Source: Solirubrobacterales bacterium
GTDB taxonomy: Bacteria > Actinomycetota > Thermoleophilia > Solirubrobacterales > 70-9
Assembly: GCA_050996575.1 (NCBI GenBank)
Contig: JBPCRS010000134.1
Span: 1-40,729 of the forward strand
Reading direction: 5' to 3'
Length of the DNA: 40,729 nucleotides
Every line of letters starts with the position of its first letter. Positions within the stretch are counted from its first letter, which is position 1. The notes beneath the pieces are model-generated. The model did no database searches. It worked only from the letters and a program-made list of their open reading frames with translations, and was not told where the DNA came from. The position numbers and the translations under genes are program-made. Shown here piece after piece: positions 8,320 to 32,931 of this stretch.

Positions 8320-9018
8320 ATGGCGCCGACGCTGACACGCGCCGACATCGACCCCGAGGCGGTCGAGGCCGAGCTCGATGACGCCTCTCCCGAGGAGGCG
8401 CTGGGCTGGGCGGCCGAGCATTTCCCCAACCTCTCGATCGCCTGCTCGTTTCAGAAGACGACCTCGGTGACGATCGATATGGCGAGCCGCGTCGCCCCCG
8501 ACGCGCGCTTCTTCTACCTCGACACCGATGTCCTCTTCCCCGAGACCTCCGAGACCCGCGACCGCCTCGCCGAGCGCTACGGGATCGAGTTCGAGCGTGT
8601 CGCCGGGATCTCGCTCGACGAGCAGGCGCGCCTCTACGGCGACGCGCTCTGGGCGCGCCAGCCCGACGCCTGCTGCGGGATCCGCAAGGTCGAGCCGATG
8701 CGCGAAGCGCTGACCGGCGAGGTCGACTGCTGGGTCTCGGGCATCCGCCGCGCCGACTCGGTCAGCCGCGCCGGCGCGAAGAAGTTCGGCTGGGACGTCC
8801 GCTTCGGCCTCTGGAAGCTGAACCCGCTCGCCGATTGGACCGAGCGCGACGTCTGGAACCACATCTCCGAGCACCAGGTCCCCTACAACCCCCTGCACGA
8901 CCAGGGCTACCCGTCGATCGGCTGCACGCACTGCACGCGGCCACCGTCGGCGAACGGTGGCCCGCGCTCGGGGCGGTGGGCGAACGCCGACAAGAACGAG
9001 TGCGGGTTGAACGGCTGA
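8320..9018 (+). CDS. cysH: adenylylsulfate (APS) reductase, thioredoxin-dependent, Fe-S type CysH
   Basis: PAPS_reduct fold with Cys pair DACCGIRKVEP plus CTHCT (4Fe-4S ligand pattern of APS-type CysH) and C-terminal ECGLNG catalytic Cys motif. SD GAGGTGGAG lies just upstream of ATG 8320 (GTG 8311 is possible). Confidence 0.9.
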   Translation: MAPTLTRADIDPEAVEAELDDASPEEALGWAAEHFPNLSIACSFQKTTSVTIDMASRVAPDARFFYLDTDVLFPETSETRDRLAERYGIEFERVAGISLDEQARLYGDALWARQPDACCGIRKVEPMREALTGEVDCWVSGIRRADSVSRAGAKKFGWDVRFGLWKLNPLADWTERDVWNHISEHQVPYNPLHDQGYPSIGCTHCTRPPSANGGPRSGRWANADKNECGLNG

Positions 9019-9097
9019 GGGCTTTCCGGATCGCTACCCTTCCCGCCTTCGCTTTCCCAACCTCTTCGATCAAGAACCCCCTGACTGGAGCCGAACC

Positions 9098-10183
9098 TTG
9101 CCTGAGACCGACACCGCCCTCTCCCTCACCCTGAGCGCCCGCCAGACGGCGGACTTCGAGCTGCTCGCCAACGACGGCTTCGCGCCGCTCGAGGGCTTCA
9201 TGGGCTCCGACGACTGGCGGTCGACGGTCGAGGACATGACCCTCGCCGACGGCAGCGAGGTCTGGCCGATCCCGGTAACGCTCGCCACCGACCTCGACTG
9301 CGCCGAAGGTGACGTTGTCGAGCTCGCCGCCGACAACGGCAAGGCGCTCGGCCGGCTCACCGTCTCCGAGATCTTCGAGCGCGATGTCGAACGCGAGGCC
9401 GAGCAGGTCTACCGCACGACCGATTCAGAGCACCCGGGAGTCGCCGCGATCCGCGAAGAGGGCAACCGCTGCGTCGCCGGCAAGATCGAGGCCGACGCCG
9501 CTCCCGACCACGAAGAAGCGTTCATGCGCCGCTACCTGACCCCGGCCGAGTCGCGCAAGGAGTTCGCCGACCGCGGCTGGAACCGGATCGTCGCCTTCCA
9601 GACGCGCAACCCGATCCACCGCGCCCACGAGTACCTGACCAAGGCCGCGCTCGAGGTCTCCGACGGGCTCTTCCTGCACCCGCTGATCGGCGAGACGAAG
9701 AAGGGCGACATCCCCGCCGACGTGCGGATGCGCTGCTACGAGATCCTGATGGAGAACTACTACCCGAACGACAGGGTCGTGCTCGGCGTCAACCCGGCGG
9801 CGATGCGCTACGCCGGCCCGCGCGAGGCCGTCTTCCACGCCGTCGTCCGCCGCAACTATGGCGCGACGCACTTCATCGTCGGCCGCGACCACGCCGGCGT
9901 CGGCGACTACTACGGGACCTACGACGCGCAGAAGATCTTCGACGACATCGACATCTCGAAGCTCGGGATTGAGCCGCTGATGTTCGAGCACACCTTCTGG
10001 TGTCACGAGTGCGAGGGCATGGGCTCGGGCAAGACCTGTCCGCACGACGCCGAGTCGCGCCTCTTCCTCTCCGGGACCAAGGTCCGCGAGATGCTCGAAA
10101 AGGGCGAGAAGCCCCCGCACGAGTTCACCCGCGAAGAGGTTGCCGACATCCTGATCGACGCTTACTCAAAGGAGAACGACTGA
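9098..10183 (+). CDS. sat: sulfate adenylyltransferase (homo-oligomeric ATP sulfurylase)
   Basis: Motifs FQTRNPIHRAHEYL and GRDHAGVG. TTG start. Confidence 0.9.
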   Translation: MPETDTALSLTLSARQTADFELLANDGFAPLEGFMGSDDWRSTVEDMTLADGSEVWPIPVTLATDLDCAEGDVVELAADNGKALGRLTVSEIFERDVEREAEQVYRTTDSEHPGVAAIREEGNRCVAGKIEADAAPDHEEAFMRRYLTPAESRKEFADRGWNRIVAFQTRNPIHRAHEYLTKAALEVSDGLFLHPLIGETKKGDIPADVRMRCYEILMENYYPNDRVVLGVNPAAMRYAGPREAVFHAVVRRNYGATHFIVGRDHAGVGDYYGTYDAQKIFDDIDISKLGIEPLMFEHTFWCHECEGMGSGKTCPHDAESRLFLSGTKVREMLEKGEKPPHEFTREEVADILIDAYSKEND

Positions 10184-10184
10184 C

Positions 10185-10727
10185 ATGGGAGATTGGAAGG
10201 GCTTCACCCTCTGGATGACCGGGCTCTCGGGAGCCGGCAAGTCGACGATCTCCGACGTCGTCGTCGCCGACTTCGAAAAGCGCGGCATCCCGGTCGAGGT
10301 GCTCGACGGTGACGTCGTTCGCGAGAACCTCTCGAAGGGCCTCGGCTTCTCGAAGGAGGACCGCGACACCAACATCCGCCGGATCGCCTTCGTCGCCGAC
10401 CTGCTCTCGAAGAACGGCACGCCGGTGATCACCGCCGCGATCTCCCCCTATCGCGAGATCCGCGACGAGGCCCGCGAGCTGCACGGCGACCGCTTCGTCG
10501 AAGTCTTCATCGCGACCTCACTCGAGGACTGCGAGGCCCGCGACACCAAGGGCCTCTACGCGAAGGCGCGCTCGGGCGAGATCCCCGAGTTCACCGGCGT
10601 CTCCGACCCCTATGAGCCGCCGGAGAACGCCGAGCTCAACGTCGAGACCGCGGGCAAGACGCCCGAGGAGTCGGCACAGCAGATCCTCGATTACCTCGAG
10701 GAGAAGGGCTTGATCCCGGCTTCATAG
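10185..10727 (+). CDS. cysC: adenylylsulfate kinase
   Basis: P-loop GLSGAGKSTI, with LDGDVVRENL and ISPY motifs. The ATG is 1 nt after the sat stop. Confidence 0.92.
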   Translation: MGDWKGFTLWMTGLSGAGKSTISDVVVADFEKRGIPVEVLDGDVVRENLSKGLGFSKEDRDTNIRRIAFVADLLSKNGTPVITAAISPYREIRDEARELHGDRFVEVFIATSLEDCEARDTKGLYAKARSGEIPEFTGVSDPYEPPENAELNVETAGKTPEESAQQILDYLEEKGLIPAS

Positions 10728-10860: not shown

Positions 10861-11364
10861 TCAGCTGTCGAGACCGGGGATCGGGTCGACTGGAAGCTCG
10901 CCATGGATCTCCTCGAGCGCGATGAGGTCGTTTCGATCGCGCGGGCGATCGGCAAGTCGTTTGAAGCCGACGATCGAGCGCAGACCGGCCACACGGAACT
11001 CGACTCCCCCGTAGTCAGCCGACATCGCCTGCTCCTCGACCGTTGCGTAATCGAGCGGAGGCAATCCGCCGCGCATGACGTCGACAAGGCCGGCATCGGT
11101 TCTCGCACGAAGGTGCGCGCGACCGATCAGGTGATCGTCGAGAAGTGGCGAGTCGTCCTGATGGCGGACGCCCCCGAGGTCGCTGAGCGCGGCGATCACT
11201 CGACGGTCGTTCTCGGAGTTGTCTGGGACCAACAGGTCGATGTCCTCGGTCGCACGAACAAAGCGGTTGGCGATCACCGAGAAGCCACCGACCACCACAA
11301 AGCGGGAGCCCTTTGCGACCAGTGCCTCGGCTGCGCGGTCGAGCTCAGGGTCGAGTGCGCTCAT
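10861..11364 (-). CDS. minimal nucleotidyltransferase (Pol-beta superfamily, MNT/AbiEii-like)
   Basis: 167 aa with the NTase signature VVGGFSVIANRFVRATEDIDLLV (G[GS]-x(9-13)-D-x-D). The start ATG overlaps the upstream small ORF by 20 nt. Confidence 0.65.
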   Translation of the reverse strand: MSALDPELDRAAEALVAKGSRFVVVGGFSVIANRFVRATEDIDLLVPDNSENDRRVIAALSDLGGVRHQDDSPLLDDHLIGRAHLRARTDAGLVDVMRGGLPPLDYATVEEQAMSADYGGVEFRVAGLRSIVGFKRLADRPRDRNDLIALEEIHGELPVDPIPGLDS

Positions 11365-11581: not shown

Positions 11582-12406
11582 CTACGGCTTCACCGGGACC
11601 CGCGGCTGACCGAGCCCGTAGGTCTCGTAATCGCCCCAGACTGAAAACGTCTTATGGTCGGGGCCGTGGAAGTCGGCCGAGGCCGTCGGGACGAGGCCGA
11701 ACTCCTCGCAGAGCTCGAGGCAGTGGCGAGTCTGCTCTTAGGTGTGGGGCGGGTAGAAGGTCTCGATCCCGTCGAGGCCGACGTCGCGGACGAGGCTTTC
11801 GACCAGGTCTCGGACCTGCTCGGGCTCGGAAACGTCCCAGTAGGGGTGGGCGACGACGGCGACGCCGCCGGCCTCGTGGATCAGGTCGACCGCCTGCTCG
11901 GCGGTGGGCCACTTGCGCGAGACGAACGCCTTCGCGCCAGGGACGAGGTACTCCTCGAAGAAGGGGCTGAGGTCGGGGCCGGCGCCGGCCGCCTTGGCGA
12001 TGTGCGGGCGGCCGATCGCGTCGGCGGCGCCGGCCTTGGCGACTGCCTGCTCGAAAGTGACCTCCACCCCATGCTCGTTGAGCCGGGAGATGATCTCCTT
12101 TGCGCGGTCGACCCGCTCTTGCTGGGCTCGGTCGCATGCGGGCTGGATTTTCTCGAGGTCGATCCAGTAACCACAAATGTGGAGGTCCTCCGAGTACTTG
12201 TGTACGCACGACATCTCGACCCCGGGCACACATTCGATCCCGAGCTCGACCGCAGTCGCGATCGCCTCGGGAACGCCGGCAACACCGTCATGGTCGGTCA
12301 GCGACATCGTCGTCACCCCGGCCTTGGCGGCCGCGCGGACGACATCGGCGGGATCGAGCTCTCCGTCGGAGACCTTCGAGTGCGATTGCAGATCGATCAG
12401 GGTCAT
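11582..12406 (-). pseudogene. PHP-domain phosphoesterase (TrpH/YciV, COG0613-like) interrupted by an in-frame TAA
   Basis: ATG 12406 gives MTLIDLQSHSKVSDG...TDHDGV...GVEMS...VVAHP...GIETFYPPHT, then TAA at 11738-11740. The same frame continues EQTRHCLELCEEFGLVPTASADFHGPDHK... (last PHP metal motif) to TAG 11582-11584. Confidence 0.7.
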
Positions 12407-12491: not shown

Positions 12492-12950
12492 ATGAGGATC
12501 ACAGCCAAAGCCGACTACGCGGTCAGGGCGACGCTCGAGCTCGCCGCCGCACCGAACGGCGAGCCGGTCAAGGGCGAGCGCCTCGCCGACGCCCAGGCGA
12601 TCCCGCTGCAGTTCCTCGAGCACATCCTGCTCGACCTCAAGCACCACGAGCTGGTCAAGGCCAAGCGCGGCATCCGGGGCGGCTACTGGCTCGCTCGCAA
12701 GCCCGAGGAGATTACGATCGCCGACGTGATCCGGGCGGTCGAGGGCCCGCTCGCGAACATCCACGACGTCTCCCCCGAGGCGACCGAGTACCCGGGGAAC
12801 GCGGCGCGCCTTCGCGACGTCTGGGTCGCGGTCCGGGTGAACCTGCGTGGCGTGCTCGAGAACGTCACCCTGGCCGACGTGAGCACGGGCGATCTGCCGG
12901 AATCGATCACCCGGATGCTCGACTCAGAAGACGCCTGGGAGCCGCGCTAA
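12492..12950 (+). CDS. Rrf2 family transcriptional regulator
   Basis: MRITAKADYAVRATLELA...IPLQFLEHILLDLKHHELVKAKRGIRGGYWLARKPEEITIADVIRAVEG is a typical Rrf2 wHTH. It is divergent from the PHP gene. The listed ORF start 12177 is an extension. Confidence 0.85.
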   Translation: MRITAKADYAVRATLELAAAPNGEPVKGERLADAQAIPLQFLEHILLDLKHHELVKAKRGIRGGYWLARKPEEITIADVIRAVEGPLANIHDVSPEATEYPGNAARLRDVWVAVRVNLRGVLENVTLADVSTGDLPESITRMLDSEDAWEPR

Positions 12951-13060: not shown

Positions 13061-13978
13061 ATGGATCCAGCACTCATCTTCTTCGGCCTCGGCATCGGCA
13101 TGCTCGTCGGCATGACCGGTATGGGCGGTGCATCGCTGATGACGCCGCTCTTGATCCTCGTCTTCGGGATCTCACCGGTGACCGCGATCGGCACCGACAT
13201 CTTCTACGCGGCGGTGACGAAGACCGTCGGCGGCTATCAGCACCTGAAGCTGAAGACGGTCCACCGCGGCCTCGCCTTCTGGCTCGCCGTCGGCAGCGTG
13301 CCGTCGGCAATTCTCGGCGTTTACGTGATCGAGCTCCTGCAGCGCAACTACGGCGAGGAGGGCCTCGACAAGCTGGTCCTCGGAATGCTCGGCGGGGCGC
13401 TGCTCGTCGTCGGAGTCGCGACCTTGCTGCGCGCAGTCTTCTTCAAGGACGTGATCCAGGAGCGCTCGTCGATGCACCTCTACCGGCGCCACATCATCGC
13501 CGCGGTGATCACCGGCATGGTGACCGGTTTCGTCATCGGCCTGACCTCTGCCGGCAGTGGCACGCTGATCGCGATCGCCCTGATCGCGATCTTCAGGCTG
13601 ACGCCGCGACGGGTGGTCGGCACCGACATATTTCACGCCGCCGTCCTGCTTTGGGCCGCAGGGATCGCCCACTGGGTCGGCGGCAACATCGACTTCGTCC
13701 TTGCCGGCAACATCCTGCTCGGCTCGGTGCCCGGCGTGCTGATCGGCGGGATGCTCTCGGTGAAGGCGCCGCAGGCATTTCTGCGCCGCGCCCTCGCCGT
13801 CGTCCTGATCGCATCGGGCACCACCCTGGTGGTCAAGGAGGGGGAGCCCAGCGTCGTAATCCCGGCGATCCTGATCGCCTCGGTGATCGTCGGCTCGCTC
13901 TTCGGCGCTCAGGTGATCTCGCAGCGGCGGTTGAAACGGGGCGGGCGGGCGGGGCCGCCGGCCGCCGCGGCGCCGTAG
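13061..13978 (+). CDS. TauE/SafE (TSUP) family sulfite/sulfonate exporter-like membrane protein
   Basis: Multi-TM protein with [26 protein letters not shown] and the second half-repeat [16 protein letters not shown]...VGTDIFH, typical of DUF81/TauE. Confidence 0.85.
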
Positions 13979-16470: not shown

Positions 16471-17613
16471 CTAGGAGAGCAAGTTCGCAGGGCAGCTGTC
16501 GAGTCGGAGCCAGGCGATCGCGAGAGCGCAGCCGGCCGGTTTTGGAGTGAAATCGTGGCGAAGGACTCCGAATCCGGTCTGGGAATGAGTCGGTCCGTAG
16601 GACGCCGGTTCGATCAGCGTGTGGAAGAGCACCATCTCCACGTCGGCCTCCGAACTGAGACGGTGCTGGAGCGTTTCCACCATTTCGGCCTGGATCGCCT
16701 CGGAGACGCCGCGGCTTCCGGTCGTCGTCGTGCCCGTCTCGGTGATCCAGATCGGCGTTGAGGGATCGCCCCACCAATCGCGGCTGGTGCGGACCGAGTC
16801 AACTTCGCGCACCGCCAGGTCACCCGAGACGTCGGTAGGGGCGTAGGCGTGCATCGAGATCACGTCCATTGCGTCCGCCGCTCCGGCATCGAAGACTCCC
16901 TTTAGAAACCAAGGGATCCCGATCGAGCCCCCGTCCGAGTCCGTGTTGACGACCGCGCCGCCAGCCACGGTCATCGACGGATCGACGGCCTTGACCGCAG
17001 CGTAAGCCGCCTCTAGCAAGGCGGCATAGGCGGCAGGGTCGGGCGCCGGGCGCCAGAAGTACGCCGAGTTGGGCTCATTCCAGACCTCGACGCCCGCGGC
17101 GCCGGGGTAACGGTCGGCGATCGCCGCGAGGGCACGGGCGAATTCGTCGTAGAACGCCGGGGCGGGCCCGGCGTGGCAGGTACCCGAGACCGCCGCGCAG
17201 GCGTCGCCCCGGGCCCATGCGGGGGCGAAGGCGAGAATGAACAACGGCCGCACCCCGTGGGCGAGATCGGCCGCATAGATCCGGTCGTAGACGTCGAAGC
17301 GATACTCACCGGGCGTTGGCTCAAACGCCTTCCAGTCGATCTGCACGCGATCGACTTCCGCCCCAACCGTCTCCAGCAGCCCAGCCGCCTGCTCGGCGGT
17401 CGCAATGCCCTGGGTGACCGAATTGTTGTTAAACCCGGTGCGCGCCTGACTCTGATTCGGCGCCGGCGGGTTCGCGGCCGCAGGAGGGCCAGCGTCACCC
17501 CCCGCCGGTGGGCACTGGCTCGTCGGCCGAACGGTCGGGTACCGAGACGGACGCGGAGACGATGTTGCGCATCTTGTTGCGCATTTGCAGATGGGCGCGA
17601 AGCAGAACCTCAT
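16471..17613 (-). CDS. clan GH-A glycoside hydrolase (GH39/GH5-like), copy 1, probably 5'-frameshifted
   Basis: Acid/base motif VEVWNEPN and nucleophile motif IWITETG, paralogous to 20800..21864. The listed N terminus (MRFCFAPICKCATRC...) has no signal peptide. The upstream ORF 17495..17899 would fuse in frame if the G6 run at 17498-17503 were G5. Confidence 0.7.
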   Translation of the reverse strand: MRFCFAPICKCATRCATSSPRPSRYPTVRPTSQCPPAGGDAGPPAAANPPAPNQSQARTGFNNNSVTQGIATAEQAAGLLETVGAEVDRVQIDWKAFEPTPGEYRFDVYDRIYAADLAHGVRPLFILAFAPAWARGDACAAVSGTCHAGPAPAFYDEFARALAAIADRYPGAAGVEVWNEPNSAYFWRPAPDPAAYAALLEAAYAAVKAVDPSMTVAGGAVVNTDSDGGSIGIPWFLKGVFDAGAADAMDVISMHAYAPTDVSGDLAVREVDSVRTSRDWWGDPSTPIWITETGTTTTGSRGVSEAIQAEMVETLQHRLSSEADVEMVLFHTLIEPASYGPTHSQTGFGVLRHDFTPKPAGCALAIAWLRLDSCPANLLS

Positions 17614-17899
17614 CGTCTGAGGTGAGCGGCTCGACTGAAACGATCACGGCCCGGCGCCTGCGCGCCACAACCTTCGCCAACCCTGTCCATCGCCCGCCGA
17701 GCGATTGCTCGATCCTCACCTTCCCGGACCAGGCGCTCTTCAGGTGCAGAGCGATGGACGCGGCGTCAGCGGGGGATTCGGCGACATGGAGGCTCAGCCT
17801 GCCGTTTTCCCGCGGTGCCGTTGCCGCCGAACCGGGCGCCGGCAGGAACAGAAGCATCATCCCCACGAGGCTGAGTGCGCGTCGAAGTCCTTTCGCCAT
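17495..17899 (-). CDS. secreted N-terminal segment (signal peptide + ~100 aa), likely the true 5' part of the GH gene
   Basis: ATG 17899 gives MAKGLRRALSLVGMMLLFLPAPGSAATA (signal peptide). It ends ...DEPVPTGGG-stop inside a G6 run. The listed 222-aa ORF (to 18163) is a read-through into the IS fragment. Confidence 0.5.
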   Translation of the reverse strand: MAKGLRRALSLVGMMLLFLPAPGSAATAPRENGRLSLHVAESPADAASIALHLKSAWSGKVRIEQSLGGRWTGLAKVVARRRRAVIVSVEPLTSDDEVLLRAHLQMRNKMRNIVSASVSVPDRSADEPVPTGGG

Positions 17900-17916
17900 A
17901 CCAAGCTTTTCGGGTA

Positions 17917-18200
17917 AGGGGGGTATCCACTTCGTTGCAGTAATGGCGTAGCGGTGGGGAGCGCCACACATCCACCACCGCCCGGCGCTGACGCGCCAGC
18001 CGCCGGGGTGCCCGCATGCCGGACAGACGAACTCCTCAGGCCAGCGCAGGCGCTCCAAGAACGCCGCGCACGCCGCATCGTCAGGGAACCATCCCCGGAA
18101 CGCTGGCCAGGTGCCCGGGTAGTCCACGCCCGCCCGTGGGTGACTCTCGGTCGGTCTCTCCACCTACGAGCACGCTACTGCAACGAAGTGGATACCCCCT
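17917..18200 (-). mobile_element. 284-bp miniature/internally deleted IS1595-family element with 8-bp target site duplication
   Basis: Terminal inverted repeats are AGGGGG(G)TATCCACTTCGTTGCAGTA at 17917-17942 and its reverse complement at 18176-18200. Direct repeats TTCGGGTA sit at 17909-17916 and 18201-18208. Inside, only the N-terminal ~70 codons of a transposase remain (FPDDAACAAFLERLRWPEEFVCPACG, zinc-ribbon type). Confidence 0.75.
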
Positions 18201-20162: not shown

Positions 20163-20861
20163 ATGGACAGCGACCAGCCCAAGGCCTTGATCGTCGACTT
20201 CGGCGGAGTCTTGACGACCAGCATCTGGCCCGCGTTCGAGGCGTTCAGTCGCTCCGAGGGACTAGAGCACAACGCGGTGCGCGAGCTCTTCAAGTGCGAC
20301 TCCGCGGCGCTGGCCGATCTCCGCGAGCTCGAAACCGGCACCTGCGAGCCGGAGGAGTTCGAGCGCCGCTTCGCTGGGCACCTCGGCATCCCGGATCGAG
20401 CCGAGGGCCTGATCGGCCGGCTCTTCGGCGGTCTCGCGCCCGACGAGCAGATGATCGCCGCGGTGCGCGCCGCCCGAGCAGCAGGCATCCGGACCGGTTT
20501 GATCTCCAACTCCTGGGGCCGGACGATCTACGACGAGGAGCTGATCGGATCGCTTTTCGACGCGGTCGTCATCTCGGGAGACGTTGGCCTGCACAAGCCT
20601 CAGCCGGAGATCTTCCTGCTCGCCTGCGAGCGGCTCGGCGTCGAGTCCGCCGATGCAGTCTTCGTCGACGACCTGCGCGAGAACTGCGCCGGCGCCGAGG
20701 AGGTCGGGATGACCGCCGTCCTGCACCGTGATACGCCGCACACCATGGAGCTCCTTGCTGCGTTGCTCGAGGTCGACGTCTCAGGGGAGCCCGCCGACCT
20801 TACGGACAGGCCTCGCCGCCCCACGCCCGAGCCACCGCGCAGAACGCCGGCTTCGGGCTGA
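20163..20861 (+). CDS. HAD-superfamily hydrolase, subfamily IA
   Basis: Motif I LIVDFGGVL, motif II LISNS, motif III/IV HKPQPEIF...VFVDDL. The 3' tail overlaps the convergent GH gene by 62 nt, so the true C terminus is uncertain. Confidence 0.8.
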   Translation: MDSDQPKALIVDFGGVLTTSIWPAFEAFSRSEGLEHNAVRELFKCDSAALADLRELETGTCEPEEFERRFAGHLGIPDRAEGLIGRLFGGLAPDEQMIAAVRAARAAGIRTGLISNSWGRTIYDEELIGSLFDAVVISGDVGLHKPQPEIFLLACERLGVESADAVFVDDLRENCAGAEEVGMTAVLHRDTPHTMELLAALLEVDVSGEPADLTDRPRRPTPEPPRRTPASG

Positions 20862-21864
20862 GATCGGGGGCGACGACGCCATAACCGGTCTCCGGATGGG
20901 TTGGGCCGTAGTTGCTCGCATCGACCAGGGTGTGGATGAGGACCATCTCCACACCCGGTATCTCCGGCAGGCGCTCACTCAGATTTATCGCCGCAAGGCC
21001 CTGGCCCGCAGGTGAGATCGCACGCTCGCCGGTCGTCGTAATCCCGGTCTCCGTCACCCAGAGCGGCAGATCGCCGCCCGAAGGGAGGGCCTCCCGCACC
21101 TCCTCGACATCGAGCACAGCCGTCCCCGCGGTCGGATCGTGCTGCTCGAGCGGAGCGTGCAGCGAAACCGCGTCCATCGCATCGAGAGCGCCGTTGCGCT
21201 CGATCTCGCGCAGGAACTCGACGTCGAGAAACTGGCCCGGACGCTCGATCTCGGAGCTGGCTGTGGCGCCTCCTGCCACCGTCATCTTCGGCGCGGCCGC
21301 TTTCACCGCCCGGTAGGTGACTTCGAGCAGCTCGGAGTAGGCCGCCGGATCCGGCTGTGGATTCCAGAAGTACGGCAAGTTCGGCTCGTTCCACACCTCT
21401 ATTCCGACGGCCTCCGGATACCGGCGGGCAAGCGCCGCAGCGGTGCGAGCGTAGTCGCCAAAGTGTTCGGCCGTCGGTGCAGCGTGGCAACCGGGCACTC
21501 CTTCCGGGCAGACTCCCCCGTTCGCCCACTCCGGTGCGAACGCGAGGTTGAACAGCGGCTGGATCCCGTGCTCTCGATCCGCGGCGTAGATCGCGTCCGG
21601 AAGTGACCAGTCGTGGTCTCCGCGGCGCGGTTCGAGCCTGTCCCAGCCGAGCTGGACGCGGTCGATCCGGCCGCCAAGCGAAGCGATCAGCGCGGCCGTC
21701 TGCTCGGGCGACGCGATGCCCTCTGCAACCGCGTTGTTGTTGAACCCGAAACGGACCGGGGGCGGCGCGTCCTCGGAATCGCTTCTCAGCAGCAGGGCGC
21801 CGGCGACAGCTGCCGCTGCAAGCACGGCCAGCGCTCCGAGCCAGGTCCAGCGCGTGGACGTCAT
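20800..21864 (-). CDS. clan GH-A glycoside hydrolase (GH39/GH5-like, PslG-like), copy 2, membrane-anchored/secreted
   Basis: N-terminal anchor WTWLGALAVLAAAAVAGALLL, with IEVWNEPN and LWVTETG catalytic motifs. Its ATG overlaps the stop of the upstream GT4 gene (ATGA at 21861-21864). Confidence 0.8.
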   Translation of the reverse strand: MTSTRWTWLGALAVLAAAAVAGALLLRSDSEDAPPPVRFGFNNNAVAEGIASPEQTAALIASLGGRIDRVQLGWDRLEPRRGDHDWSLPDAIYAADREHGIQPLFNLAFAPEWANGGVCPEGVPGCHAAPTAEHFGDYARTAAALARRYPEAVGIEVWNEPNLPYFWNPQPDPAAYSELLEVTYRAVKAAAPKMTVAGGATASSEIERPGQFLDVEFLREIERNGALDAMDAVSLHAPLEQHDPTAGTAVLDVEEVREALPSGGDLPLWVTETGITTTGERAISPAGQGLAAINLSERLPEIPGVEMVLIHTLVDASNYGPTHPETGYGVVAPDLSPKPAFCAVARAWGGEACP

Positions 21865-23045
21865 CGCCCCTTCACGCCGCTCAGAACACGACCGTAGAGG
21901 CCGAGAACGCGCTCGACCTGCGTCTCGACCCCGTACTCGTGGATCGCACGGGTACGTCCGTTGCCGCCCATCGCGACACGCAGCTCGGCGTCGGCCAACA
22001 GGGTACTTATGGCGTCCGCCCAGGCCTTCGGGTCACCGGGCGCGAGCACAAGCCCGTCGACGCCGTCGCGCACCACTTCGGCCGGACCGCCGGCGCTCGT
22101 CGCTACGACCGGTACGGACATCGCCATCGCCTCGACGGCAACACGACCGAAACCCTCGCGACGGGAGGGCAGGAGGACGACGTCCGCCGCGCGCAGCAGC
22201 TCCGGTATGTCCTCTCGCTCGCCGAGAAAGCGAACCTCATCCTCGACGCCGAGCGATCGGGCGAGGCGGTGCAGGCCGAGAGTGTAGGCCGCGTTGTCCT
22301 CGCGCGCCGCTGACCCTGCAAACCGGGCGCTACCGGCGATCAGCAGACGGACGCGCGGGTGATGGGGCTTCAGCTCCGCCAGGACCTGGATCGCGTCGTC
22401 CTGAGCCTTGACCGGAGCGAGGTAGCCGACCGTGACGAGCGCGAGATCCTCCGGTCCGAGTCCGAGGCCGGATCGTGCGATCACTCGATCGATCCGGGCG
22501 GGGTCGAAGCGATCCGTCGCAATCGAGTTCGGGATCACCTCGACGAGCCGATCATCGCCCGAGAACTGCTGGGCCGTGTAGCGGGAATTGGCGACGATTG
22601 CCGCCGCGGCGCGCGCGAAGAGTAGCCGGGTGATCCCGGCGACTGCCCCCTCGGGCATCAGCGTCCGAACGTGGACGACGGCCGGGATCCGAACCGCGAA
22701 CGCGGCGAGCGACACCGCGATCCCGGCGCGCTCGGTGTTCGCGTGAATCAGGCTCAATCGGCGCCGCCGCGCGAATCGGGCGACCTGGATCGCGGAAGCG
22801 GCGATCGCTGCTATCCCCATCGGCGTCTGTACGGGGTCGAGCCGAAAGCTCGCATCGATCGCCGGGATCGCGAGAACCGAGATACCGCGCGAGCGAAGGG
22901 CGTCCAAGAGCTCGCCTTCCGGGCAGGCGACCGACACCGGGATGCGGCGCGATAGGCCGTCTAGGAGATCGAGCAGCGAGCGCTCGGCGCCCGCGATCTC
23001 GGCCGTGTGATTGACGAATAAGACCGACGTATTGGTAGCGCTCAT
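21861..23045 (-). CDS. glycosyltransferase family 4 (GT-B, retaining type)
   Basis: Has LFVNHTAEIAGAERSLLDL and the C-terminal E-x7-E region PSRREGFGRVAVEAMAMSVPVVATSAGGPAEVV. ATGA overlap with the upstream GT4 at 23042-23045. Confidence 0.85.
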   Translation of the reverse strand: MSATNTSVLFVNHTAEIAGAERSLLDLLDGLSRRIPVSVACPEGELLDALRSRGISVLAIPAIDASFRLDPVQTPMGIAAIAASAIQVARFARRRRLSLIHANTERAGIAVSLAAFAVRIPAVVHVRTLMPEGAVAGITRLLFARAAAAIVANSRYTAQQFSGDDRLVEVIPNSIATDRFDPARIDRVIARSGLGLGPEDLALVTVGYLAPVKAQDDAIQVLAELKPHHPRVRLLIAGSARFAGSAAREDNAAYTLGLHRLARSLGVEDEVRFLGEREDIPELLRAADVVLLPSRREGFGRVAVEAMAMSVPVVATSAGGPAEVVRDGVDGLVLAPGDPKAWADAISTLLADAELRVAMGGNGRTRAIHEYGVETQVERVLGLYGRVLSGVKGR

Positions 23046-24145
23046 CGGTGTCCGGTCACCTCTCTGATCAGCGCCTCGACCTCGGCGGCATGTCGCGCCC
23101 AGGTCCGCCCTCGCGCTCGCCTCGCCCCCTCATCCCCGAGAGCCGCGGCCAAGCCGGGGTCGAGAAGCAAGCGCGCGATCGCCTCCGCGACCGCCGCCGG
23201 ATCGGTGGGATCGACCAGCAGTCCGGTCTCGCCGTCGGCGACCGCGTCGACGGCTCCACCGACGTTTCCGGCCACGGCCGGCAGTCCGTGGCTCGCGGCT
23301 TCGAGGAAGACGATGCCAAATCCCTCTCCGCCGACCCCGCCGTCCGGGAGGCGGCTGGGCATCGCGAATACGTGGGAACGCTCCAGCCAGCGATCGCGCT
23401 CTGCGTCGTCGATCCGGCCAAGGAACCTGGCGGAGTCCGAGACGCCGAGGTCTCGGGCGAGCGCCTCGAGCGAGGAGCGCAGTCGTCCGTCGCCGATCGA
23501 AACCCACTCGACGTCGGGGACACGCTCCCTGATTTCTGGCAGCGCGCGGATCAGCACGTCATGGCCCTTGTACGGCTCCTGCATGCGGGCGACCGTGACC
23601 ACGGTCGGCTGGCCGAGGCGGCTCAGCCCTGTGATCCGAGGCGCGTCGACGCCATTGCAAATCACCCTGACCTTCTGCGGATCGCAGCCGGCCAGCAGTG
23701 CCATCTCCCTGGCGTGTGCGCTGACGGCGACAACGGCGGTTGCCCGGTGTAGCGCGAAGCGAACGAGCCGGGGCCGCTTGCGGACCTCATCGGCGTGCAG
23801 GTACTGGATCGTCGGCACGCCGCGGATCCGGCCGAGCGCCGCCGCCGCGGGCGCGCCGACGACATGGCCCGAGATGACGACGTCGGGGCGGAATCGCAGG
23901 CCCCGCCACAGCGCAGCCACGTTCAACTGCACGACGGCGAGCTTGTTTCCGGCGATCCGCTGCCGACCCACCCTGCGCACGTCGACGTCCCCTCGACGCT
24001 CCGTCGGTGGTGCCTCGGGGGGGCCGAGCGTGACGACCAGCGGCTCGGCGTCGCCGAGGTTGTCGACAAGGCCACGCATCACGACCTGGATCCCGCCACT
24101 TGCGGGCGGGAAGTCTGGGGTCACGACGAGCGGCCGCAGATTCAT
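23042..24145 (-). CDS. glycosyltransferase family 4
   Basis: Has PPASGGIQVV and MPSRLPDGGVGGEGFGIVFLEAASHGLPAVAGNVGGAVDAV. Confidence 0.85.
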   Translation of the reverse strand: MNLRPLVVTPDFPPASGGIQVVMRGLVDNLGDAEPLVVTLGPPEAPPTERRGDVDVRRVGRQRIAGNKLAVVQLNVAALWRGLRFRPDVVISGHVVGAPAAAALGRIRGVPTIQYLHADEVRKRPRLVRFALHRATAVVAVSAHAREMALLAGCDPQKVRVICNGVDAPRITGLSRLGQPTVVTVARMQEPYKGHDVLIRALPEIRERVPDVEWVSIGDGRLRSSLEALARDLGVSDSARFLGRIDDAERDRWLERSHVFAMPSRLPDGGVGGEGFGIVFLEAASHGLPAVAGNVGGAVDAVADGETGLLVDPTDPAAVAEAIARLLLDPGLAAALGDEGARRARGRTWARHAAEVEALIREVTGHR

Positions 24146-24196
24146 CGAGCTGCGGATCGCACGACCGCGGGGAGGATGCGCGCGCGGGCCGGCCGC

Positions 24197-26205
24197 TCAG
24201 GGAATGGCGGCCTCGACGGCATCTCGTAGCCGGCTGCGGAAAGAATCTCGATCCCAGTTCGTCGCATGGGTGCGAATCCGATCGGGATCGTAGGCGCTGG
24301 AATCGAACGCGCTCACCGCCTCGGCGATCGCGGCTGCGCTCTGAGCCTGAAAGAACTCGCCGGTCACGCCGGGGACGACCGTGTACTTGGCGCCACCGCC
24401 GGCGAAGGCGAGGACCGGGCGGGCGCAGGCCATTACCTCGAGCGGAAGCAGCCCGAAGTCGTCCTGACTCGGGAAGATAAGCGCCTGGCAGCGCTGCATC
24501 AGCGGCACCAGGTCGCGATCCTGCAGCGCCCCGGTGAACTCGACGTTTGCGGGTGCGCCGGCCTCGAGCTTCTCCCTGGCCGGCCCGTCGCCCACGACCA
24601 TGAGGCGGTATGGAAGGGACTGAAAAGCCTCGATCGCGATGTCAGCGCGCTTGTACGGCTCGACCAGCCGGCCGCAGAAGAGGAAGAAATCGTCGGGATC
24701 TTCGGGTCGATCGCGCGGCACGAACAGGTCACAATCGACCGGCGCGCCGACCACAGTCGCCTGACGGCCGTAGAAGCGGTCGATCTGCTCCGCGACGTAA
24801 TCGGATTGGGTGAGGTAGCTGCTGACCCTTGACGCGGCCTGCCGATCGGCGAGGCGCATCGTCCCTGCCAGCGCCCGGAACGCTGCCGACCTGATCTTGC
24901 CCGAGGCCCACTCGCCTTCGTAGTTGTCGGTCATCGACCAGGCGAACCGCAGCGGCCCGTGGCAGAAGCAGACCTGAGGCGCGTCGTTCCGCGTCCTGAG
25001 GTGATGGGCGAACGCGTAGCTGGACGTGAGCAGGACATCGGCCTCGGGCAGGCGCCTGAAGCGAAGCAGGGCGGGCAGCAGCGGTGCCGTCAGCCGGTAG
25101 TGCTTTAGCAGCAGTCGAGTCGGCGTAAGCAAGCTCGTGAACCTGGCGGCAACTCCCATCCGCTCCGCCACTTCCCGACTTCCGAGGATCGCGTAAACGG
25201 GCGCGTCGGGGAACACCGCCGCCATCTCCGCGGTGCCGCGCTCCGCACCTCCGGAGGTCTCCATGAAGTCATGCGCGATCACGACGCGGAGATTTCGCCC
25301 TCCCGGGGCCTGGGCTCCCGCGGGAACCCCGGGGCGGTGGGCCCGGGCCGCGGCGGCGAGCGCCCGAAGCTGCGGCAGATCGGCCGCGAACGCCCTGTGG
25401 CCTCGCCACCAGGCACGCATCACCGCCGCGGCCCCACGCGGCGAGCGGCCCCAGCGTTTTAGCTCGGAAGCGAGACAGAGCGCTTCGAAGTACACGAGCC
25501 GCTTCAGGCTTCGGCTCGCGAAAAGCGCGTCAAAGAGGTTCGCGTAGTAGCGATCGGCCTCGTTCTCGACCGGGTAGACGTTGTGCCTCTCGTCGTGCCG
25601 CGCGCGGGCGTCGGGGGCGTAACAGAGCTCGGCGCCCGCGAGCCGCCACACCATCGTCACCCAGCGATCGTCGAACGGCCAGAGGCGCTCGTTCCACGGG
25701 AAGGCATGCGCAAGCTCGCGCGGATAGAGCAACAATGCGCTGACGAGGAGCTCTGGTCGCTCGCCCGGCCCGGCCGCCCTGCCGACGCCGATCCGCCTCA
25801 TTACCAATGGCCGCGAGGTCCAGTCCGGCCATTCGACGGCGCCGGCCACAACTCGCGGCGTCCTGACCCGCCGATAGGCGTCGACCAGAGCCGATATGGC
25901 TCCGGGCTCGACGTAGACGTCGTCGTCGACGCTGACGACCAGGCGGGCGCGGCAGGCTCGTGTACCGACGTTGCGCGCCGCCGCCGCGCCGACCCGGTCG
26001 TGGGCTACCCGTGTCGCGAACGGATGTCGCGCGCAGATCTCGGCGACGCGTTCGGCGTCGGCGCCGGTCGAGGAATCGCAGACCCAAACCCGGAACTCGA
26101 GCTTCTCCCTCGCGGCCGCCAGTGCCTCGAGACACCCGGCCAGGCGCTCGGGCCGGTTGCGGGTGGGGACGATGACCCCTCACAGGTCGAGATCGTCCGC
26201 CCCAT
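24197..26205 (-). CDS. two-domain glycosyltransferase (N-terminal GT2 fused to C-terminal GT4), 5' end frameshifted
   Basis: One continuous frame from 26179 carries VIVPTRNRPERL...VCDSSTGAD...SVDDDV (GT2), then a linker, then VVIAHDFMETSGGAERG...IFPSQDDFGLLPLEVMACARPVLAF (GT4). That frame has no start before GTG 25849. An SD GGAGGGGGAG + ATG at 26205 is in the adjacent frame, 8 codons upstream of a G4 run (26176-26179). Confidence 0.7.
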
Positions 26206-26317
26206 TCTCCCCCTCCGCTCGCGGCGGCGCGGGGAACGGCGCTTGCTCAAGCATCGAATCTGAGCGTCGTCATCGTCTGACAACGTAACCTGGGCCTGGC
26301 AGCGTTCGCGGCGCGGG

Positions 26318-27838
26318 ATGGAAACGGGATTACTGACACGGAGAGCGGGATCGGCGATCCGCCATGGTTCGTGGACTCCATCGCCCGGCGCCGGAGGCGC
26401 CTGGCCGGTCGCCGCGGGAATCGGCGTCGCCGGTGTCGCCGGGGTCCTCGCCGGCGGCGGCGACTGGCAGCTTGCGATCGCGGCGGCGTTCGGACCCGCG
26501 TTCGTGGTGCTCGCCACGGCGGTGCCGGAGCGCACGGCGCTAGCGCTGATCGTGGCGTTGCCCTTTCTTTTCTATCCGGCAACGATCGGCGAGTTCTCCC
26601 TGTTTCTCGCGGTACCGCTGTTCGGCTACACATCGGTGGTCCTGCTGACCAGGCAGACGGCTTCGTTTCACCGGCTTGGCAGGGTCCTGCCGGCGATCGC
26701 CTTCGGGATCCTGCTCGCGATCACCGTGGTGGTGGCACTGCTTTCGGCCGACCAGGCGGCCGGGCTGAGCCGTTCTCTTTACCTAACCCTGTTCGGCCTC
26801 TTCGCCTGGTCATTGGCGGCGACGCTTGCTGACGGCCGCCTTTCTCGAACCGACGTGGCGAAGGCAATCGTGTTCAGCGGTGCCCTTGCGGCCGCCGCCG
26901 TGTCGATCCAGTTCCTGGCTCAATTCGCGACCAGCACCGGATCGGTTCGAACCTGGCTCTTCGACACCGCACCGCTGTTCGCGGGCGAGGGGAACGTTGG
27001 CGGCAGCAACTGGATCATCACCGACCTCGAGGTCATCCGCGGCCTCTTCCCCTTCCTCGCTCCAGCCGGTGCCGGGCAGTTCCTGATGCTGACGCTGATT
27101 GCCGGTGTCTGGCTGCGGCGTGAGAACGCGTTTCGCACTCAGTTCGGGCCGGGGATCGAGCTCGCGCTCTTGATCCTGATCGGCGCCGCGCTCCTGTTCA
27201 CCTTCTCGCGCCAGTCGTGGGTCGGCGCCGTGGTGGGGATAGTCGCCCTCGGGATGCGGTCCAGGGCCGCTGGAACGCTCGGAGCGATGGTGATCGCCGC
27301 GATCATGGTCATGGTCTTGCCGATCCCGGGCGGGAGTGGCTCGTTCGGGGACTATCTGCTCACCGCCGGCGACACGTCGACGATCTCCACATCGAATCGG
27401 ATCGACATCTGGGAAAACGCGATCGAACAGATCCCCGATCACGCGATTATTGGAGTCGGTCCGGGGCTGATCGAGACCGAAACGATCAGCGCAGATCCGA
27501 GCCGTCGCACCTACGCGCACAACATTTTCCTCGATGCCGCGCTCGAGCTTGGGGTGCCGGGGGCCTTCGCCCTGGCTGCCGTGCTCGTCCTCGCAATCGC
27601 GGCTGCCCTGCGGCGGAGAGCCGAGCTCGCCTTTGCAATGCTCGCCGCCTACACCGTCGCCGGGATCTTCGACGACGTCTTCTACTTCCCCAAGAACGGC
27701 TTGCTGCTGGCCGCAGGGTTCGCGCTGATCGCCGGATCGGACGCGGTCTCGGGATCGATCAGCCCGAACCGCTCAAACGCCGCGACCAATCCGAGCGCGG
27801 CGAGGACGACGAAGAACGGTTCGAGCGGCACTCGGTAG
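26318..27838 (+). CDS. O-antigen ligase/polymerase-like (Wzy_C domain) polytopic membrane protein
   Basis: 10+ hydrophobic segments, with LLFTFSRQSWVGAVVGIV and YAHNIFLDAALELGVPGAF, both typical of the O-antigen ligase/Wzy family. Start is uncertain. Confidence 0.75.
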   Translation: METGLLTRRAGSAIRHGSWTPSPGAGGAWPVAAGIGVAGVAGVLAGGGDWQLAIAAAFGPAFVVLATAVPERTALALIVALPFLFYPATIGEFSLFLAVPLFGYTSVVLLTRQTASFHRLGRVLPAIAFGILLAITVVVALLSADQAAGLSRSLYLTLFGLFAWSLAATLADGRLSRTDVAKAIVFSGALAAAAVSIQFLAQFATSTGSVRTWLFDTAPLFAGEGNVGGSNWIITDLEVIRGLFPFLAPAGAGQFLMLTLIAGVWLRRENAFRTQFGPGIELALLILIGAALLFTFSRQSWVGAVVGIVALGMRSRAAGTLGAMVIAAIMVMVLPIPGGSGSFGDYLLTAGDTSTISTSNRIDIWENAIEQIPDHAIIGVGPGLIETETISADPSRRTYAHNIFLDAALELGVPGAFALAAVLVLAIAAALRRRAELAFAMLAAYTVAGIFDDVFYFPKNGLLLAAGFALIAGSDAVSGSISPNRSNAATNPSAARTTKNGSSGTR

Positions 27839-27981
27839 CGACTCGTCCCCGAGACGAAGACCACGCTGAGAAACAGCAACTGGACGAATAGCCATACGCC
27901 CCAGGTAACCCGTCGCGCGGCGCGGGTGAAGGCTCCGATCACCGCGAGCGCGGCGGCGACGTAGAACGACAGCGTCCAGCT
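27682..27981 (-). pseudogene. possible C-terminal remnant of a polytopic (GT39/ArnT-like) glycosyltransferase
   Basis: Only the last ~99 codons of the listed 234-aa ORF look protein-like (FYVAAALAVIGAF...WLFVQLLFLSVVFVSGTSRYRVPLEPFFVVLAALGL). There is no canonical start, and the rest of the ORF is Arg-rich and overlaps the GtrA-like ORF. Confidence 0.25.
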
Positions 27982-28001
27982 TTTTCGCCTATCGCGCGTT
28001 C

Positions 28002-28253
28002 GTGTTCTACGTCGAGGGGAAGGTTTTCCGCGATCTCGTGCGCTTCTCGTCCGTCTACGGCGTCGGGCTGCTCCTGCAAGCTGCACTCCTCTCGCTTCTC
28101 GTCGAGGTAGTCGAGGACCCCGTTCTCGCCGCACAACCACTCGCGATCGGAATGATGGCGATCTACGGATTCTTCGCCAACCGATATTTCTCTTTCCGTA
28201 GAAACGACACGGAACCCGTTCCGCCGCTGGCGTCGGCAGGCCCGCGCGACTAA
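28002..28253 (+). CDS. GtrA-family protein, half-size (first two TM segments only)
   Basis: LVRFSSVYGVGLLLQAALLSLL... and GFFANRYFSFRRN match the GtrA TM1-TM2 region and its NRxW/F-F motif. The TM3-TM4 half is missing. Confidence 0.5.
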   Translation: MFYVEGKVFRDLVRFSSVYGVGLLLQAALLSLLVEVVEDPVLAAQPLAIGMMAIYGFFANRYFSFRRNDTEPVPPLASAGPRD

Positions 28254-28303
28254 AGACTCCGCGACTTCGACCGAGATCAGCAGATCCACCTATCGTTTGC
28301 CCT

Positions 28304-28774
28304 ATGAGCCGACTCGCGAAAGCCACCGTGACTGTCGCAATATTGGTTGCGGTCTGGCCAGCGCTCGCGCCGGCGCAAACCACCACGGGACCCAGCCGCG
28401 AGGACTTCGCCGCCGCGGCAGATCAGATCTGCGAGCAGCCCTACCGGAAAGCATTCCGGCGGCTCAATCGTGCCGGGCGCCTCAAAGACCGTGGCTTCGA
28501 GGTGAAGGCGGGCAAGACGCTCGTCGGCGCCGGGAGCGTGACTCTATTGGCCCTTAAACGGGTCGGTCGACTGGACCGGCCCGTGGAGGATGCGGACAGA
28601 ATTGCCCGGTGGCTCGACGAGATGCGCCCCGGCGTTCGCTTTCTCAACAAGAGCGGAAGGGCCCTCGCCGACCACCACCCGGAGCGCTCCAAGCGGCTAT
28701 TGAAGAAGTCGAACCGCAAGGTGCGCAGGGCAAAACGCATCGTGAGCGACCTCGGCATGGAGATCTGCGCGTAG
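28304..28774 (+). CDS. secreted hypothetical protein
   Basis: Signal peptide MSRLAKATVTVAILVAVWPALAPAQ followed by a basic 130-aa mature part. No family recognised. Confidence 0.5.
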   Translation: MSRLAKATVTVAILVAVWPALAPAQTTTGPSREDFAAAADQICEQPYRKAFRRLNRAGRLKDRGFEVKAGKTLVGAGSVTLLALKRVGRLDRPVEDADRIARWLDEMRPGVRFLNKSGRALADHHPERSKRLLKKSNRKVRRAKRIVSDLGMEICA

Positions 28775-28787
28775 CCTTGCACGCATC

Positions 28788-29717
28788 GTGCCGCACGATC
28801 CAGCGATTCATCTTTCGGTCGTCATTCCGACGCGGGATCGGCCTGCACTAGTCGCCGACTGCCTGGCGACGCTGCTCTCACAGGAGGAACCCCCAGGTGG
28901 GATGGAGATCCTGCTAATCGACGACGGCTCTGCGGAACCATTGACGATGGAGGGCGCCGGTCATGGGTCCCGCGTGCGCTGCGTGCGGCAGGACGCCCAA
29001 GGATTGAACGTTGCTCGCAATCGCGGTGTGGCCGAGGCTCGGGGAAAATTGCTCGCCTTCCTCGATGACGACACCCTCGTACGACCTGGATGGGCAAGCG
29101 CTGTGGCCGAGGGGTTCGCGGTGACGGGGTGTGATGCGCTCGGCGGCCGCATCACCCTGCAGTTCGAGAGCGATCCGCCACCGTGGCTGACACCCAGGCA
29201 GTTCAGTTTCCTCTCCCACTACGACCTCGGACCGGAACCGCAGGAGGTGAGCACACGCGTACGCCTTCCCTTCGGCGCCAATTTCGCGGTCAGGCGCGAG
29301 ACCCTCGAGCGACTTGGTGGCTTCCGTCCCGACCTCGACCGTATCGGCTCGACTTTGATCTCGAACGGCGAGACAGAGCTACTGCTTCGTATCGTCGACG
29401 AGAACGGCAAGATCGCCTACTGGCCCGCCGCCGACGTCGCTCACCGCGTGCCGGCGGAGCGCCTGACGAAATCCTGGTTTCAGGAGCGCGCCCTCGCGCA
29501 GGGGGTGAGCGATGTCCGCACGATCCCGCCCGGCAAACGCACCGATTCGATCATCCGGACCCTGCTCGTGGCCCGTCAACTGATCTTCATCGCGGGCAGC
29601 CTCCCTGGCGTCGCGAGTCGGTTGGCTCGCGAGCGGAGCCGCTTCGACCAGGCGCTGTGGTGGACCTATTGCCGTGGCCGCATCGATGAGGCGAAACGGT
29701 TCCGCCTGCGCCCGTGA
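28788..29717 (+). CDS. glycosyltransferase family 2
   Basis: LSVVIPTRDRPALVADCL, LLIDDGS, FLDDDT. GTG start. Confidence 0.85.
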   Translation: MPHDPAIHLSVVIPTRDRPALVADCLATLLSQEEPPGGMEILLIDDGSAEPLTMEGAGHGSRVRCVRQDAQGLNVARNRGVAEARGKLLAFLDDDTLVRPGWASAVAEGFAVTGCDALGGRITLQFESDPPPWLTPRQFSFLSHYDLGPEPQEVSTRVRLPFGANFAVRRETLERLGGFRPDLDRIGSTLISNGETELLLRIVDENGKIAYWPAADVAHRVPAERLTKSWFQERALAQGVSDVRTIPPGKRTDSIIRTLLVARQLIFIAGSLPGVASRLARERSRFDQALWWTYCRGRIDEAKRFRLRP

Positions 29718-30913: not shown

Positions 30914-30943
30914 CGGAGGAGGAGCCTGCCAGAATCCGCCGTC

Positions 30944-31924: not shown

Positions 31925-31954
31925 GCCGCCCCGCGCTCCGACTGGGCCAGCGGC

Positions 31955-32911: not shown

Positions 32912-32931
32912 GCGGCAACAATACGCAGCCG

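Follow-up and report, generated by a model that had tools for sequence, protein, structure and literature searches.

An assimilatory sir-cysH-sat-cysC operon in an uncultured Thermoleophilia bacterium and the likely role of its APS kinase in supplying sulfotransferases

The 40,729-base stretch of DNA analyzed here (the window) is an entire contig of a metagenome-assembled genome (MAG) of 2.46 Mb, in 230 contigs and with 87.6% completeness. It carries sir-cysH-sat-cysC, an operon for the activation and reduction of sulfate, of an uncultured Solirubrobacterales-like Thermoleophilia bacterium; genes were identified from a list of open reading frames (ORFs) and by scans against Pfam and NCBIfam, and coordinates are given in Table 1. 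The window has a G+C content of ~68%, and the nearest relatives of its Sat, at 77 to 95% identity, belong to MAGs labelled Thermoleophilia, Solirubrobacterales or Conexibacteraceae, many of them derived from soil surveys. We focus on cysC, the gene for adenosine 5'-phosphosulfate (APS) kinase, the enzyme that makes 3'-phosphoadenosine 5'-phosphosulfate (PAPS). Judging from the type of CysH encoded beside it, and from gene co-occurrence over 151 genomes of the class, we consider it likely that cysC makes PAPS for the sulfotransferases of this genome and that sulfate assimilation with an iron-sulfur (Fe-S) CysH does not need it.

The cysH gene can start at the ATG given in Table 1 or at a GTG at 8311, from which residues are numbered here. 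Its product matches PF01507 with an E value of 6.9e-46 over profile positions 2 to 175 of 175, and cysH is the sole PAPS_reduct-family gene found in the genome. The protein carries C121 and C122 (in DACCGIRK), C205 and C208 (in GCTHCT) and C231 (in NECGLNG), which gives the motif CC-X82-CxxC plus a catalytic C-terminal cysteine. The motif CC-X~80-CXXC is a published marker of APS reductases, and PAPS reductases are without it (Carroll et al., PMC1175818). Both cysteine motifs are kept by 76 to 77 of 77 relatives. At the C-terminal ECG(L/I)H signature the protein reads KNECGLNG, with the cysteine present and the last histidine replaced by asparagine, as in ~40 of the 77 relatives. Among all solved structures, the best match is 7lhr (E 2.1e-44, 155 bits), which we take to be the Mycobacterium tuberculosis enzyme, followed by 2goy, an adenosine phosphosulfate reductase (4e-34, 122 bits), and CysH aligns with both cysteine for cysteine. 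The PAPS reductases of Escherichia coli, Vibrio and yeast score below these, with E values from 1e-23 to 7e-27 (2o8v 2e-26 and 1sur 1e-23, the E. coli enzyme at 96 and 87 bits), and the PAPS reductases 7rge and 6vpu, when aligned to CysH, have no cysteines at the Fe-S positions. A preliminary description of this DNA had read DACCGIRK and CTHCT as the Fe-S ligand pattern of a reductase that uses APS, and both the motif and the ranking of solved relatives bear it out. We infer that CysH is of the Fe-S type and that APS is probably its preferred substrate.

The two genes behind cysH are assigned with confidence. Sat exceeds the cut-offs of NF003166 (501.2 versus 387) and TIGR00339 (401 versus 323), and CysC those of NF002059 (249.3 versus 244) and TIGR00455 (224.8 versus 138.7); CysC also matches PF01583 at E 2e-62 over positions 1 to 151 of 152, and its translation holds the P-loop GLSGAGKST as well as LDGD and ISPY. 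The end of sat reads ...AAGGAGAACGAC TGA and is followed by a single C and then the ATG of cysC, leaving a spacer of 1 nt, with a Shine-Dalgarno-like AAGGAG within the 3' end of sat. This arrangement is consistent with the translational coupling that had been proposed for the pair, though it is not proof of it. Sat is the only ATP sulfurylase found in the genome (a single PF01747 match), and a profile search of the genome found no CysD. Sat would thus serve both branches, and only cysC would be dedicated to sulfation. The earlier idea that sat and cysC together form a dedicated PAPS supply therefore stands for cysC and not for sat: the four genes make up an operon for assimilation to which a side-arm for sulfation is attached, and they do not include a PAPS module of its own.

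Support for a role of cysC in sulfation also comes from comparison across the class. We used one fixed sample of 151 genomes and five profile searches, for cysC, Sulfotransfer_3 (E <= 1e-6), CysH, Sat and CysD; families are referred to as f1 (the window's own), f2 and so on. An APS kinase was found in 56 genomes, a Sulfotransfer_3 match in 44, a CysH homolog in 86, Sat in 65 and CysD in 40. Nearly all genomes with a Sulfotransfer_3 match (43 of 44) have cysC, and a sulfotransferase occurs in just 1 of the 95 cysC-less genomes (G075). Individual families show the same pairing: of the 12 f2 genomes, the 4 with cysC are also the 4 with a sulfotransferase, and two of these come from a genus of four members; the 8 f5 genomes with a sulfotransferase all fall within the 14 that have cysC; and in f8 the lone cysC genome is also the lone sulfotransferase genome. 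These figures are counts rather than a statistical test, taken over related genomes that are not independent of one another.

Conversely, a CysH homolog is found with no APS kinase in 33 genomes, none of which has a Sulfotransfer_3 match. CysD scores above its curated cut-off in 20 of the 33, where its gene frequently adjoins cysH, and the Fe-S motif CC...CxxC together with ECGL is kept in 15 of 16 inspected loci from these genomes, which argues that this type of CysH works without an APS kinase. Thus, the sample supports a reading in which, in this class, an Fe-S CysH and an ATP sulfurylase would make up a complete PAPS-free route, with cysC appearing where sulfotransferases do. Two claims of the preliminary description, that cysC is not needed for assimilation and that it feeds sulfotransferases, agree with these counts.

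The class has two alternative sulfate-activation modules: Sat, which is always accompanied by cysC in f1, f5 and f7, and CysD(N), which is typical of the cysC-less genomes. At one f7 locus (L127, 1843-7970, genome G039), a same-strand run comprises genes for a fumarase-C-like protein, ComA, cysH, cysC, sat, TauE, a gene of no assigned function and a sulfotransferase; the run is apparently one operon, and match coordinates indicate similar clusters in several other f7 genomes. At that locus, sulfite from CysH may feed sulfolactate synthesis (ComA being phosphosulfolactate synthase) and PAPS a sulfotransferase. Two other observations concern the wider class. One cysC-less genome (G147, locus L124) has, beside CysD, a CysH homolog that lacks both CC and CxxC, an exception to the class's Fe-S rule. 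In f9, Sat is present in 19 of 24 genomes, and the searches of the class sample found neither cysH nor cysC there.

Which sulfotransferases would the PAPS serve? Whole-genome searches with Sulfotransfer_3 and Sulfotransfer_1 found at least ten sulfotransferase genes, with 12 domains in 10 ORFs, as well as eight sulfatase-family matches and one formylglycine-generating enzyme. Five of the sulfotransferase genes lie on contig C68, interleaved with glycosyltransferase (GT) genes of families GT4 and GT2. Two of these encode two-domain proteins of 682 and 637 residues that keep xRSGTT and IHLIRDGRD in both halves. Directly before the C68 sulfotransferases stand five tandem type-I sulfatases, all with the formylglycine motif CCPSR, and the whole forms a sulfatase-sulfotransferase island of ~18 kb (C68:4946-23375) flanked by purL and purC. 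Contig C86 adds two sulfotransferases next to a GT28-like gene, and C142 adds one next to a flippase-like gene. The sulfotransferases here show a weak NoeE match. A genome search for the Stf0 type (PF09037) found none, a weak negative since the control search was likewise empty everywhere, and a genome search for Sulfotransfer_2 (PF03567) gave nothing usable. The genome is not alone in its family: six of 11 sampled f1 genomes (2.1 to 3.5 Mb) have at least 17 to 18 Sulfotransfer_3 matches each, which amounts to a very high density.

The window itself contributes a sulfotransferase start, which had been noted at the edge of a large glycan locus and is indeed there. The ORF reads (M)SLPAPLRHLAAPPLFIVGVPRSGTTWLFDILT and contains the 5'-phosphosulfate-binding loop VPRSGTTW; PF13469 matches it over only 20 residues (27 bits, E 4.3e-5), and it and the final GT2 gene of this locus are divergently oriented. 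The glycan locus is of the Wzx/Wzy type, with five GT4 and five GT2 genes, a Wzy, a flippase and several methyltransferases. No contig continuing the sulfotransferase was found by k-mer overlaps of 20 to 55 nt. With the neighboring GT2 as an anchor, 30 genomes of the family yielded a homolog in 4, one of which (G137) has an adjacent sulfotransferase by coordinates. Since most of the genome's sulfotransferases stand among glycosyltransferase, flippase and sulfatase genes, their products are likely sulfated glycans or glycoconjugates; the gene neighbors are what points to a glycan as the acceptor.

Together, these observations suggest the following scheme. Sat, the only ATP sulfurylase found, would make APS, which would be the branch point. 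The Fe-S CysH would reduce APS directly to sulfite, and Sir would take the sulfite on to sulfide, from which cysteine is made. CysC, encoded directly behind Sat, would phosphorylate part of the APS to PAPS, the presumed donor for the products of the ten or more sulfotransferase genes. The by-product 3'-phosphoadenosine 5'-phosphate (pAp) would then have to be removed, and the best candidate for this in the lineage would be the neighboring PHP-family phosphoesterase, whose gene has a premature TAA in this assembly.

The PHP protein had been proposed as a pAp phosphatase on family grounds. Its best solved relative is 2yb1 (Cv1693, a characterized 3',5'-nucleotide bisphosphate phosphatase; E 1e-28), followed by RNase AM (7ug9). 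It shares the PHP fold with both, and most metal ligands and a triad of arginines align: the Arg residues of its ER, VDR and GRPH correspond to R107, R110 and R141 of RNase AM, and its FFEEY aligns with the Phe region, so that both the 5'-phosphate pocket and a base-stacking aromatic are found. In both RNase AM and Cv1693, these arginines bind the 5'-phosphate (PMC9410882). However, the full trinuclear metal ligand set (HxH, D, H, E, H, H, D/H) is not present. The first histidine of HxH is a glutamine (DLQSHS; window 12374-12391) in every sampled member of the order (f1, f2 and f3), the families f5 and f6 keep HxH, and the arginine that follows the AHP motif is not conserved. Identity among PHP proteins in most related loci is 75 to 88% (62 to 66% in a few), generally above that of CysH (53 to 93%), and this conservation suggests that the QxH variant is probably functional.

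The gene in the window is interrupted by an in-frame TAA (11738-11740) at codon 223 of 274, beyond which family-typical sequence continues, including the last metal motif, DFHG. Among 67 relatives, this codon encodes A, K, E, R or P and is never a stop. It encodes E in the nearest relative (90% identity), and TAA is a single substitution away from GAA or AAA. The TAA could mark a pseudogene, vary within the population or stem from an error in the consensus. Recoding of the TAA was rejected because a stop occurs in 0 of 67 relatives and a single base change suffices. In another genome (G181, locus L181, 1503-2319), the PHP ortholog has a frameshift at ~codon 220, beside a CCGCCCCAC run and near the position of the window's TAA; this may be a long-read homopolymer error.

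How firmly can a role in the sulfation branch be assigned to this protein? A serious contender, if not quite the reading we would back, is that PHP is a general 5'-3' nanoRNase of the RNase AM type, syntenic by descent and a pseudogene here, and not the pAp phosphatase of the sulfation branch. The in-frame TAA fits this, and so does the distribution: PHP homologs occur in 22 of 25 f6 genomes, where cysC occurs in only 2, and none was found in 23 f7 genomes, 20 of which have cysC, mostly with sulfotransferases. The PHP tree (a quick tree with SH-aLRT support only) follows taxonomy, as expected for vertical inheritance. The top NCBIfam model, NF041577, gives 163.4 bits for the truncated ORF and 188.6 with read-through, below its cut-off of 400, and the RNase Rnm model is close behind (138). 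Moreover, the E. coli RNase AM is an exonuclease that acts on pAp as well (PMC11528712). Set against these points are the closest solved relative, which is a pAp phosphatase, the conserved 5'-phosphate-binding arginines and the gene's position, 0 to 5 kb from cysC in ~60 of 80 related loci. In addition, cysH, cysC and PHP follow one another in the same direction in ten f5 genomes, representing seven genera, with 18 to 69 nt between cysC and PHP (L139-L148), an operon that would suggest PHP as the class's pAp phosphatase of the sulfation branch. A separate paralogous clade of cysC-adjacent PHPs was considered and rejected, as adjacent and non-adjacent f5 PHPs intermix in the tree. Finally, coenzyme A metabolism is another source of pAp, and three classes of pAp phosphatase are known, the PHP enzymes among them (PMC8268124). 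A phosphatase for pAp would hence be expected even where cysC is missing.

A search of the genome for other pAp phosphatases found no clear CysQ; two Inositol_P-family genes on contigs C165 and C209 score ~21 bits on TIGR01331 versus a cut-off of 228.8, and either may or may not be a CysQ. The DHH/NrnA search gave a long RecJ-like frame plus a fragment at the edge of a contig. The proposed removal of pAp by PHP is plausible, but the role would not be specific to sulfation; the gene lies on the minus strand and is interrupted. A general pAp phosphatase recruited beside cysC is a coherent reading.

Several points weigh against assigning cysC to sulfation and belong beside the evidence above. CysH falls short of the trusted cut-off of TIGR02055, the APS_reductase model (200.3 versus 235.3 bits), and it passes the generic cysH models NF002537 (231.9 versus 154) and TIGR00434 (200.9 versus 165.1); it also fails the PAPS_reductase model TIGR02057 (171.5 versus 254.2). 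The CysH of Bacillus subtilis, with the same Fe-S motif, reduces both APS and PAPS (PMC1175818), so the motif alone does not exclude the use of PAPS. In the class sample, 13 cysC genomes have no Sulfotransfer_3 match at the threshold used, and because the genomes are related, the independent events behind the co-occurrence must be fewer than the counts. Of the sulfotransferase at the glycan locus, just 33 codons precede the end of the contig. Within the literature searched, no paper brings sulfotransferases and Thermoleophilia together, and we know of no sulfated product from the class. Lastly, since every Sat in f1, f5 and f7 is accompanied by cysC, sat-cysC may simply travel as one module.

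This last point leads to an alternative in which CysC is mainly a thermodynamic or kinetic partner of Sat, PAPS is a reservoir, and sat-cysC is inherited as a module. The ATP sulfurylase equilibrium is unfavorable for APS formation, all 36 Sat genomes of f1, f5 and f7 have cysC, and the cysC-less cysH genomes mostly use CysD. However, a PAPS reservoir would need a return route to APS, and Sat and cysH occur without cysC in three f6 genomes. The f2 genomes with cysC fused or adjacent to CysDN (G005, G017, G065 and G113) are exactly the f2 sulfotransferase genomes, so the link between cysC and sulfotransferases holds in genomes that pair cysC with CysDN and not with Sat. We regard a partnership with Sat as unlikely to be the main role of CysC, though it is compatible with PAPS supply to sulfotransferases. 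Less likely still is that cysC is part of plain assimilation, with a bispecific or PAPS-preferring CysH, a route from sat through cysC to cysH, and sulfotransferases as incidental users of PAPS: the shared operon of cysH, sat and cysC, the B. subtilis precedent and the model scores of CysH would all allow it, but 33 genomes of the class have a CysH, mostly Fe-S where inspected and often with CysD, and no APS kinase, cysC tracks sulfotransferases and not cysH, and the nearest solved relatives of CysH are APS reductases.

A PAPS supply of this kind has well-known counterparts. In mycobacteria, an Fe-S CysH takes one share of the APS and a CysC domain converts another into PAPS for the sulfolipid sulfotransferases, a scheme established in M. 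tuberculosis (PMC4373884). As in that system, an APS-type reductase, an APS kinase and PAPS-dependent sulfotransferases are found here in one genome. The two differ in that the sulfurylase here is the GTP-independent Sat and there CysDN; CysC here is a separate protein coupled to sat and there a fused domain; sir, cysH, sat and cysC here share one operon; no Stf0-type sulfotransferase was found here, a weak difference given the empty control search; and the genome has far more sulfotransferase genes per Mb, arranged in glycan-type clusters. The B. subtilis operon, with the gene order cysH-cysP-sat-cysC and a dispensable cysC, likewise places an Fe-S CysH with sat and cysC in one operon. Its CysH is the bispecific enzyme mentioned above, and to our knowledge B. 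subtilis is not rich in sulfotransferases, whereas cysC here co-occurs with sulfotransferases across the class. In rhizobia and Xanthomonas, the extra sulfate-activation genes NodPQ and RaxPQ supply PAPS to NodH, NoeE or RaxST. There, a second CysDN-CysC copy is dedicated to the task; here, a single Sat is shared.

The surroundings of the operon are largely conserved (Table 1). The order OCD / dodecin-sir-cysH-sat-cysC / 0 to 5 kb of variable DNA / PHP on the opposite strand / Rrf2-TauE-ACAD is kept in ~60 of the 80 related loci, and the synteny of sir in ~70 of 80. The start of sir is uncertain: the ORF opens with a GTG at 6210 and has ATG codons at 6360 and 6423, and its top NCBIfam match is the NirA family, below the cut-off. 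The AbiEii-like gene, which here separates cysC from PHP, is a lineage-specific insertion with no part in the pathway; tblastn gave no homolog of its product in any of the 80 related loci, and together with the variable length of the spacer, this suggests that the spot accepts insertions. The Rrf2 gene is divergent from PHP, and this pair is conserved across related loci. In other families of the class, cysH clusters include TauE/SafE genes. An Rfam scan of the whole window gave no family at its gathering score and thus no sign of an S-adenosylmethionine (SAM) riboswitch, or of any other, upstream of the operon. Elsewhere in the window, two genes for RTX calcium-binding repeat proteins lie near the contig start, and an IS1595-type transposase zinc-ribbon ORF lies directly upstream of the glycan locus.

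Table 1. Features of the window discussed in the text, with coordinates in the 40,729-base stretch
Feature	Position	Strand	Basis
RTX calcium-binding repeat proteins (two)	397-1455	+	
Dodecin	5949-6197	+	Pfam/NCBIfam scans
sir, ferredoxin-type sulfite reductase (NirA/SirA-like)	~6360-8297	+	PF01077 E 2e-45, PF03460 E 1.5e-34
cysH, thioredoxin-dependent sulfonucleotide reductase, Fe-S (APS reductase) type	8320-9018	+	PF01507 and motifs
sat, homo-oligomeric ATP sulfurylase, PUA_2 and ATP-sulfurylase domains	9098-10183	+	NF003166
cysC, APS kinase	10185-10727	+	PF01583, NF002059, TIGR00455
AbiEii/DUF6036-like nucleotidyltransferase	10861-11364	-	weak PF08843 match, E 8e-6
PHP-family phosphoesterase (COG0613; Cv1693/RNase AM-like), candidate pAp phosphatase	11582-12406	-	2yb1 best solved relative
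Rrf2-family regulator (CymR/IscR-like)	12492-12950	+	PF02082 E 7e-34; TIGR00738 above cut-off
TauE/SafE-family anion permease (sulfite or sulfate transport)	13061-13978	+	PF01925 E 3e-41
IS1595-type transposase zinc-ribbon ORF	17495-18163	-	
Glycan locus, Wzx/Wzy-type	20800-40729		
PAPS-dependent sulfotransferase, N-terminal 33 codons	40630-40729	+	PRSGTTW loop; PF13469

The pathway logic proposed here is textbook for mycobacteria, and the operon itself adds nothing new to it. The comparative result is the useful part: across 151 Thermoleophilia genomes, the presence of an APS kinase goes with sulfotransferases rather than with sulfate assimilation. The PHP gene adds a lead from gene context: in actinobacteria that use PAPS and have no clear CysQ, the pAp phosphatase may be a COG0613 enzyme of the PHP family.

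The enrichment of sulfotransferases and sulfatases in the window's family is a by-product of the analysis and the more interesting outcome. We entertain, with some doubt, the bolder idea that these bacteria devote an unusually large share of a 2 to 3.5 Mb genome to organosulfate chemistry, in which up to 18 or more sulfotransferase domains per genome, some of them in two-domain enzymes, would make heavily sulfated glycans for the surface or for secretion, clustered type-I sulfatases would remodel them, and the QxH PHP would replace CysQ for pAp. At a more general level, the many sulfotransferases and sulfatases of this family point to sulfated glycoconjugates in an abundant, almost uncultured soil lineage.

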